Source: Escherichia coli
GTDB taxonomy: Bacteria > Pseudomonadota > Gammaproteobacteria > Enterobacterales > Enterobacteriaceae
Assembly (NCBI RefSeq): GCF_003334405.1
Contig: NZ_QOWM01000003.1
DNA length: 64,000 nt
Reading direction: 5' to 3' (one strand)
Part shown: positions 39,800 to 39,938 of the stretch, one piece after another
Numbering within the stretch: position 1 is the stretch's first letter
How the letters are laid out: the number at the start of each line of letters is the position of its first letter
Translations under genes and position numbers: made by a program
The notes under the pieces: generated by a model
Database searches by the model: none
The model's input: the letters and a program-made list of their open reading frames with translations, nothing else
Told to the model about the DNA's origin: nothing

Positions 39800-39938
39800 A
39801 TGTCTTTCATTTGTGTACCTGATTGCGAACCAATTTAGCATTTGTTGGCTAGATGGTTTCGCAATGAACTGTTAATAAACAAATTTTTCTTTGTATGTGA
39901 TCTTTCGTGTGGGTCACCACTGCAAATAAGGATATAAA
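39800..39938 (+). promoter_or_regulatory. thrS 5' leader/operator (translational autoregulation)
   Basis: Long inverted repeat ATTGCGAACC (39822..39831) / GGTTTCGCAAT (39855..39865) and a GTGGGTCACCAC palindrome just upstream of the RBS; thrS leader is known to be bound by ThrRS. Confidence 0.55.

Follow-up and report, generated by a model that had tools for sequence, protein, structure and literature searches.

The element immediately 5' of thrS in the 64,000-nucleotide stretch of Escherichia coli DNA analysed here (the window) is, almost certainly, the E. coli thrS translational operator. This operator is already known. It has been characterised genetically, biochemically and structurally, and belongs to the textbook examples rather than to new findings. 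Our own analysis established both of its hairpins, their comparative support, the anticodon-like loops that they carry, the spacing between these loops, their position relative to the Shine-Dalgarno sequence, and the identity of the element with that of K-12. No evidence contradicting the operator explanation was encountered. The coordinates of the operator features and of thrS are given in Table 1.

Table 1. Positions in the window of thrS and of the features of its leader.
Feature	Position	Strand	Basis or description
Operator domain 4, distal anticodon-arm mimic	39822..39865 (-117 to -74 from ATG)	+	fold and covariation
Domain 4 loop AUUUGUUG	39840..39847	+	8 nt; UGU triplet at 39843-39845
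Domain 3, linker between hairpins	39866..39889	+	sequence
Operator domain 2, proximal anticodon-arm mimic	39890..39926 (-49 to -13)	+	fold and covariation
Domain 2 loop UUCGUGU	39904..39910	+	7 nt; triplet C39906 G39907 U39908 (-33 to -31)
GTGGGTCACCAC "palindrome"	39909..39920	+	3' end of domain 2 loop, 3' strand of upper stem and unpaired CAC
Domain 1, Shine-Dalgarno UAAGGA 39927-39932 and AUG 39939-39941	39927..39941	+	sequence; PMC3858243
thrS CDS	39939..41867	+	642 aa ORF; annotated thrS in RefSeq; encodes threonyl-tRNA synthetase

Threonyl-tRNA synthetase (ThrRS) is both the regulated product of thrS and its repressor. The predicted product aligned along its entire length with 1QF6, the crystal structure of E. 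coli ThrRS (1511.6 bits), and RefSeq annotates the gene as threonine--tRNA ligase in all 5426 matching E. coli genomes. Window positions 39339-41867, comprising thrS and its leader, showed 0 mismatches to K-12 MG1655 (NC_000913.3), which we take to be the background used to define the operator. The leader was conserved at 99% identity or more in 5425 of the 5426 complete E. coli genomes. It is unannotated in RefSeq, and a search of Rfam with the whole window at the gathering threshold, and with positions 39600-40000 at E <= 10, returned no family for the thrS leader. Since Rfam has no model of the thrS operator, this blank result neither supports nor refutes the identification. The promoter-like sites returned by a scan, two at 39497-39570, did not exceed the number expected by chance, and none was near the expected start of thrS transcription, which we assume to lie near 39777 (-162). 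On inspection of the sequence by eye, TGTTAACAT at 39762-39770 is a possible extended -10 element of thrS.

The minimum free energy fold of positions 39780-39945 contained two hairpins, at 39822-39865 and 39890-39926, and was more stable than expected (z = -3.27 for the whole leader). We compared the leader with thrS loci from 80 other Enterobacterales species, which together with the window gave 81 sequences whose leaders were aligned. Folding and comparison of the loops with tRNA-Thr identified anticodon-like loops in both hairpins; the original prediction had proposed an operator of this type and had not identified the loops themselves. It had named folds without such loops as its own refutation, and it withstood this check.

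The distal hairpin (domain 4) is a 44-nt structure of 17 bp, in which the RNA fold leaves T39857 bulged and A39833 unpaired. Its lower stem is formed by ATTGCGAACC (39822-39831) and GGTTTCGCAAT (39855-39865). Both strings had been placed correctly in the original prediction, as had GTGGGTCACCAC, and the first two had been described there as a long-range inverted repeat. The repeat is real and exceeds chance both in folding energy and in covariation, but "long-range" overstated it, as only 23 nt separate the two strings, and these are the upper stem and loop of domain 4. A repeat finder extended the arms to 18 nt each (39822-39839 and 39848-39865), ungapped and 83% complementary. Folded alone, domain 4 had a free energy of -18.4 kcal/mol compared with -7.1 +/- 2.2 for dinucleotide shuffles (z = -5.0), and none of 200 shuffles folded as well. 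Among 28 species with the same type of distal arm as E. coli (class A, described below), 15 of the 17 pairs had changed on both sides. Of 500 shuffles, one reached the observed covariation on one of five measures, and none did so on the other four.

The proximal hairpin (domain 2) has a lower stem that pairs UUUGUA at 39890-39895 with UGCAAA at 39921-39926, and an upper stem that pairs GUGAUCU at 39897-39903 with GGGUCAC at 39911-39917; CAC at 39918-39920 is unpaired. Comparative support for this structure was strong across the alignment, with 97.8% of cells paired and compensatory changes in 8 of 13 pairs. Changes on both sides were seen, for example, as GUGAUC/GGUCAC, GUGCUC/GGGCAC, GUGAGC/GCUCAC, GUAAGC/GCUUAC and AUGCUC/GGGCAU. 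On four of five measures none of 500 column shuffles came up to the observed value; on the fifth (further pair types) 14 of 500 did. When the partners were slid by 1-3 columns, pairing fell to 35-50%.

This structure bears on the string GTGGGTCACCAC, which had been put forward as an RBS-proximal palindrome. The string does exist just 5' of the Shine-Dalgarno sequence, ending 6 nt upstream of UAAGGA, but it had been mis-parsed. When folded alone (GUGG/CCAC, 4 bp), it was equalled by 41 of 200 shuffles, the GUGG/CCAC pairing had no covariation support and was broken by the few variants that occur, and in the fold of the whole leader the string does not form a hairpin by itself. We also considered that GTGGGTCACCAC could be a palindrome at the level of DNA, serving as the operator of a transcription factor near the start of thrS. 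The GTGG...CCAC arms are almost invariant in the 81 sequences, as such a site would predict; however, they are only 4 bp long and no better than the shuffles just described, and the invariance of GUG and CAC is equally well explained by contacts of ThrRS or the ribosome on RNA. In addition, the centre of the palindrome changes from GGTCAC to GGGCAC, GCTCAC, GCTTAC or GGGCAT in step with the upstream GTGATC, and not symmetrically within the palindrome. A centre that covaries with upstream bases and not with itself is the signature of an RNA stem, which disfavours a DNA operator. The string is also located inside the transcript, approximately 130-145 nt downstream of the transcription start that we presume at -162, and we found no evidence for a footprint of a DNA-binding protein at 39909-39920 with an effect on transcription. 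We therefore regard a DNA operator at this site as extremely improbable.

The loops of the two RNA hairpins were compared with the anticodon loops of the E. coli tRNA-Thr genes, taken from MG1655, which are UUCGUAA (thrW, CGU), CUUGUAA (thrU, UGU) and UUGGUAA (thrT, GGU). Both operator loops carry a threonine-like N-G-U triplet, CGU in the proximal loop (39906-39908) and UGU in the distal loop (39843-39845). The domain 2 loop is the same as that of tRNA-Thr(CGU) at positions 32-36, and the domain 4 loop contains UUGU, equivalent to U33 and the UGU anticodon (positions 33-36) of tRNA-Thr(UGU). We inferred the register of the domain 4 loop against tRNA positions 32-38, as this loop has 8 nt where the canonical loop has 7.

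Conservation in the loops was concentrated on two bases. The only invariant bases of the domain 2 loop are G39907 and U39908 (81 of 81 sequences), and the only invariant bases of the domain 4 loop are G39844 and U39845 (28 of 28 class A sequences); the G-U was likewise kept in 49/49 distal loops of the second type (class B). At the equivalent of position 34, the proximal loop had C in 76 sequences, U in four and G in one, which are exactly the first bases of the three real threonine anticodons, and distal loops had U, G, A or C. In some species the proximal loop carries A or G, and not U, at position 33. For tRNA-Thr of bacteria, G35 and U36 are listed as identity elements (PMC9976931), and the invariant G-U of the loops corresponds to these two ThrRS identity bases. 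The proposal that the leader contains an operator mimicking the tRNA anticodon arm is supported by the loops, by covariation and by identity with K-12. The proximal mimic, however, is the stem formed by 39897-39903 and 39911-39917, and not a self-folded GTGGGTCACCAC.

These patterns also argue against a general role of the hairpins in mRNA stabilisation or RNase processing that involves no specific protein ligand. Structured 5' untranslated regions can protect mRNA, and the fold of this leader adds another 5' hairpin at 39780-39820, but a purely stabilising role does not account for an unchanging G-U in all loops next to freely varying stems, for the restriction of the proximal loop to real threonine anticodon bases at position 34, or for the conserved spacing between the loops. 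We give this explanation hardly any weight.

As an operator of translation, the leader is arranged around the ribosome-binding site of thrS. Domain 2 ends at 39926 and the Shine-Dalgarno sequence begins at 39927, which places the hairpin directly upstream of the ribosome-binding signal. The 3' end of domain 3 is U-rich (AUUUUUCUUU, 39883-39892) and continues into the base of domain 2. In the published thrS operator, domain 3 is single-stranded, and its U-rich 3' part forms a bipartite ribosome-binding site together with domain 1; AUUUUUCUUU corresponds to the upstream half of this site. The distance from the G-U of one loop to that of the other stayed within 61-70 nt. The bounds and triplet that we calculated for domain 2 coincide with what we take to be its published bounds (-49 to -13) and triplet (C-33, G-32, U-31). 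The fold also predicted an extension of domain 2 that pairs 39883-39888 with 39928-39933 and buries the Shine-Dalgarno sequence. This was rejected, as it was paired in 46.9% of cells, the same as shuffles. Its lack of comparative support agrees with the published description of the thrS Shine-Dalgarno sequence, UAAGGA, as unpaired (PMC3858243). The additional 5' hairpin in the fold (39780-39820, GGGUGGAAGGUGAGAGG...CUUUCAUUUGUGUACCU) had a predicted energy of -15.3 kcal/mol (z = -2.7) and would lie 5' of domain 4, downstream of the presumed transcription start.

The thrS leader is long and structured in the fold, and thrS of Firmicutes is under T-box control, but the possibility that the hairpins act as an attenuator of transcription or a riboswitch of the T-box type, with a terminator controlled by uncharged tRNA-Thr bound to the leader as in Bacillus thrS, is effectively refuted and has a negligible probability, because a scan of 39400-40000 on both strands found no terminator-like site, no U-run follows either hairpin, no T-box or other Rfam match was found in the leader even at E <= 10, and the leader loops carry anticodons rather than a specifier codon.

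For the mechanism of the thrS operator we follow the literature. Once there is more ThrRS than uncharged tRNA-Thr to occupy it, the ThrRS homodimer would bind both hairpins, one per subunit, using its anticodon-binding domains. The ribosome-binding site has two halves, the U-rich tract upstream and UAAGGA with the AUG downstream, and the proximal hairpin sits between them, so that bound ThrRS would exclude the 30S subunit and translation of thrS would be repressed. tRNA-Thr would compete for the same site and relieve this repression. PDB entry 1KOG, which we take to be the ThrRS-operator complex, was listed among the structures with ThrRS residues 242-642. Published work describes a four-domain operator in which domains 2 and 4 mimic the anticodon arm and ThrRS competes with the 30S subunit (PMC11088916, PMC9976931, PMC3858243). 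Binding of ThrRS to domains 2 and 4, as look-alikes of the tRNA-Thr anticodon arm, prevents 30S binding, and exchange of the anticodon-like triplet for that of methionine passes control to MetRS (PMC11088916, PMC9976931, PMC3858243, PMC7373986). In work cited by the reviews, mutations at G-32 or U-31 (G39907, U39908) reportedly abolish the ThrRS-dependent regulation with no change in mRNA half-life (cited in PMC11088916), purified ThrRS is reported to remove the 30S toeprint at +16, and overproduced ThrRS to affect the translation of thrS and not the synthesis of its mRNA.

Comparison of the leaders showed that the distal hairpin exists in two discrete versions, A and B, in the 80 Enterobacterales species. 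Class A is the E. coli type, with an upper stem UUUAGC/GCUAGA and the loop NNNNGUNG; 31 species and the window were assigned to it, and the alignment took in 28 of these sequences. In class B the stem is UUYGC/GCRRR and the loop ARRGURRA, which was AGAGUGAA in 36 of 49 species. The distal arm of either class is located at about -125 to -75 from the thrS ATG in the comparison loci (L001-L080; window equivalent 39822-39865). Class B also showed covariation, as 6 of its 8 pairs had changed on both sides and 0/500 shuffles reached its covariation score. Both classes have the invariant G-U and a similar spacing to the proximal loop. Both were present in several families, and the two occurred together within the genera Citrobacter, Enterobacter and Escherichia. 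No class B leader was found in the 5426 complete E. coli genomes.

One locus labelled as E. coli (L002; strain SCPM-O-B-8794, NZ_JAATUR010000048.1) combined sequence of two kinds, when locus positions 1017-1097 were compared with those from 1147 onward. Its thrS coding DNA was 94-97% identical to E. coli, whereas the leader upstream of about -50 was class B, with 86-89% identity to Citrobacter werkmanii/youngae and about 50% to E. coli. This mismatch between coding sequence and leader suggests that recombination replaced the operator's upstream half, with the G-U and the loop spacing kept, and implies a putative recombination breakpoint between domains 2 and 3. It is possible, although we propose it only tentatively, that the distal anticodon-arm mimic is a swappable module that may be exchanged by recombination upstream of about -50. 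Class B loops mostly carry AGU, an N-G-U outside the E. coli tRNA-Thr anticodons (CGU, UGU and GGU). If the exchange is real, the AGU of class B would show, as a test made by nature, how few bases ThrRS requires besides G35 and U36. We found no description of this distal-arm dimorphism in the literature searched.

A possible third anticodon-like hairpin 5' of the class B arms (GGAU-UUUGUAC-AUCC in L004), noticed by eye, was dropped, as relatives show a 6-bp stem and a 3-nt loop at this place. Both leader classes contain repeated copies of the motif GTAC[AC], at about -143, -127 and -115, which places them 5' of the distal hairpin or at its 5' base. It occurred 62 times between -170 and -100, compared with 9.6 +/- 2.9 expected, and often as a 12-nt tandem repeat (ATTTGTGTACCA twice). 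In the window, GTAC motifs are found at 39812-39819 (TGTGTACC) and at 39740-39745 (GGTACA), and in E. coli the copy at 39815 is the only one remaining in the -143/-115 zone.

The genes 3' of thrS are infC, rpmI, rplT and pheMST. Transfer of MG1655 coordinates places the start of infC at 41871, 3 nt past the thrS stop, whereas the ORF listing gives infC as 41979-42413, from an internal GTG. We understand the infC start codon to be an unusual AUU that is itself an autoregulatory feature. In a few E. coli genomes (strains PF9285 and PSJ-07) an IS1 element is inserted approximately 360 nt 5' of the thrS ATG (window equivalent ~39570-39585), outside the operator and upstream of the presumed thrS promoter. 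Elsewhere in the window, Rfam identified the Phe leader (pheM attenuator) at 43233-43357 (75 bits), the sRNA STnc540 at 47198-47356 (67 bits), and two minus-strand copies of ES036/CssrF at 26248-26290 and 19102-19144 (55.5 and 42.9 bits). No tRNA genes were found within the window.

The thrS operator is a founding example of molecular mimicry in translational control, in which an aminoacyl-tRNA synthetase reads its own mRNA by the identity rules used for its tRNA. For E. coli, confirming it brings nothing new, and the call made from sequence alone was correct. What is gained is the exact window coordinates of each operator domain, which are absent from RefSeq annotation and from Rfam models, together with a useful comparative by-product in the invariant G-U, the freedom of the position-34 equivalent to vary, and the two versions of the distal arm.

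The element in the window has the same sequence and the same four-part anatomy as the K-12 thrS operator described by Springer, Romby, Ehresmann and co-workers (1KOG complex). As there is no difference between them, it is the operator itself and not a relative. It shares with the anticodon arm of tRNA-Thr (thrW CGU, thrU UGU, thrT GGU) a helix whose loop measures about 7 nt and has U33 followed by N34-G35-U36. The two differ in that positions 37-38 are GU in the proximal and UG in the distal operator loop but AA in the tRNAs, the distal operator loop has 8 nt, the closing pair of the operator is U-G where the tRNA has A-U or C-G, and the operator is without D, T and acceptor arms. The T-box leader of Bacillus subtilis thrS/thrZ is similar in being a cis-acting thrS leader that senses the tRNA-Thr system. 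However, the T-box makes direct contact with tRNA and controls transcription termination, whereas the E. coli leader, according to the literature, would imitate the tRNA, bind the enzyme and act on translation initiation. Autoregulation of yeast AspRS through an anticodon mimic in its mRNA follows the same logic, in which the mRNA of an RNA-binding protein imitates the normal RNA substrate of that protein and is repressed by it, and rRNA-mimicking operators of ribosomal proteins, such as that of L20 on rpmI-rplT just downstream of thrS, share this logic of self-repression (PMC9976931, PMC7373986). The proteins, RNA folds and organisms differ in the AspRS and L20 systems, which are analogous and not homologous to the thrS operator.
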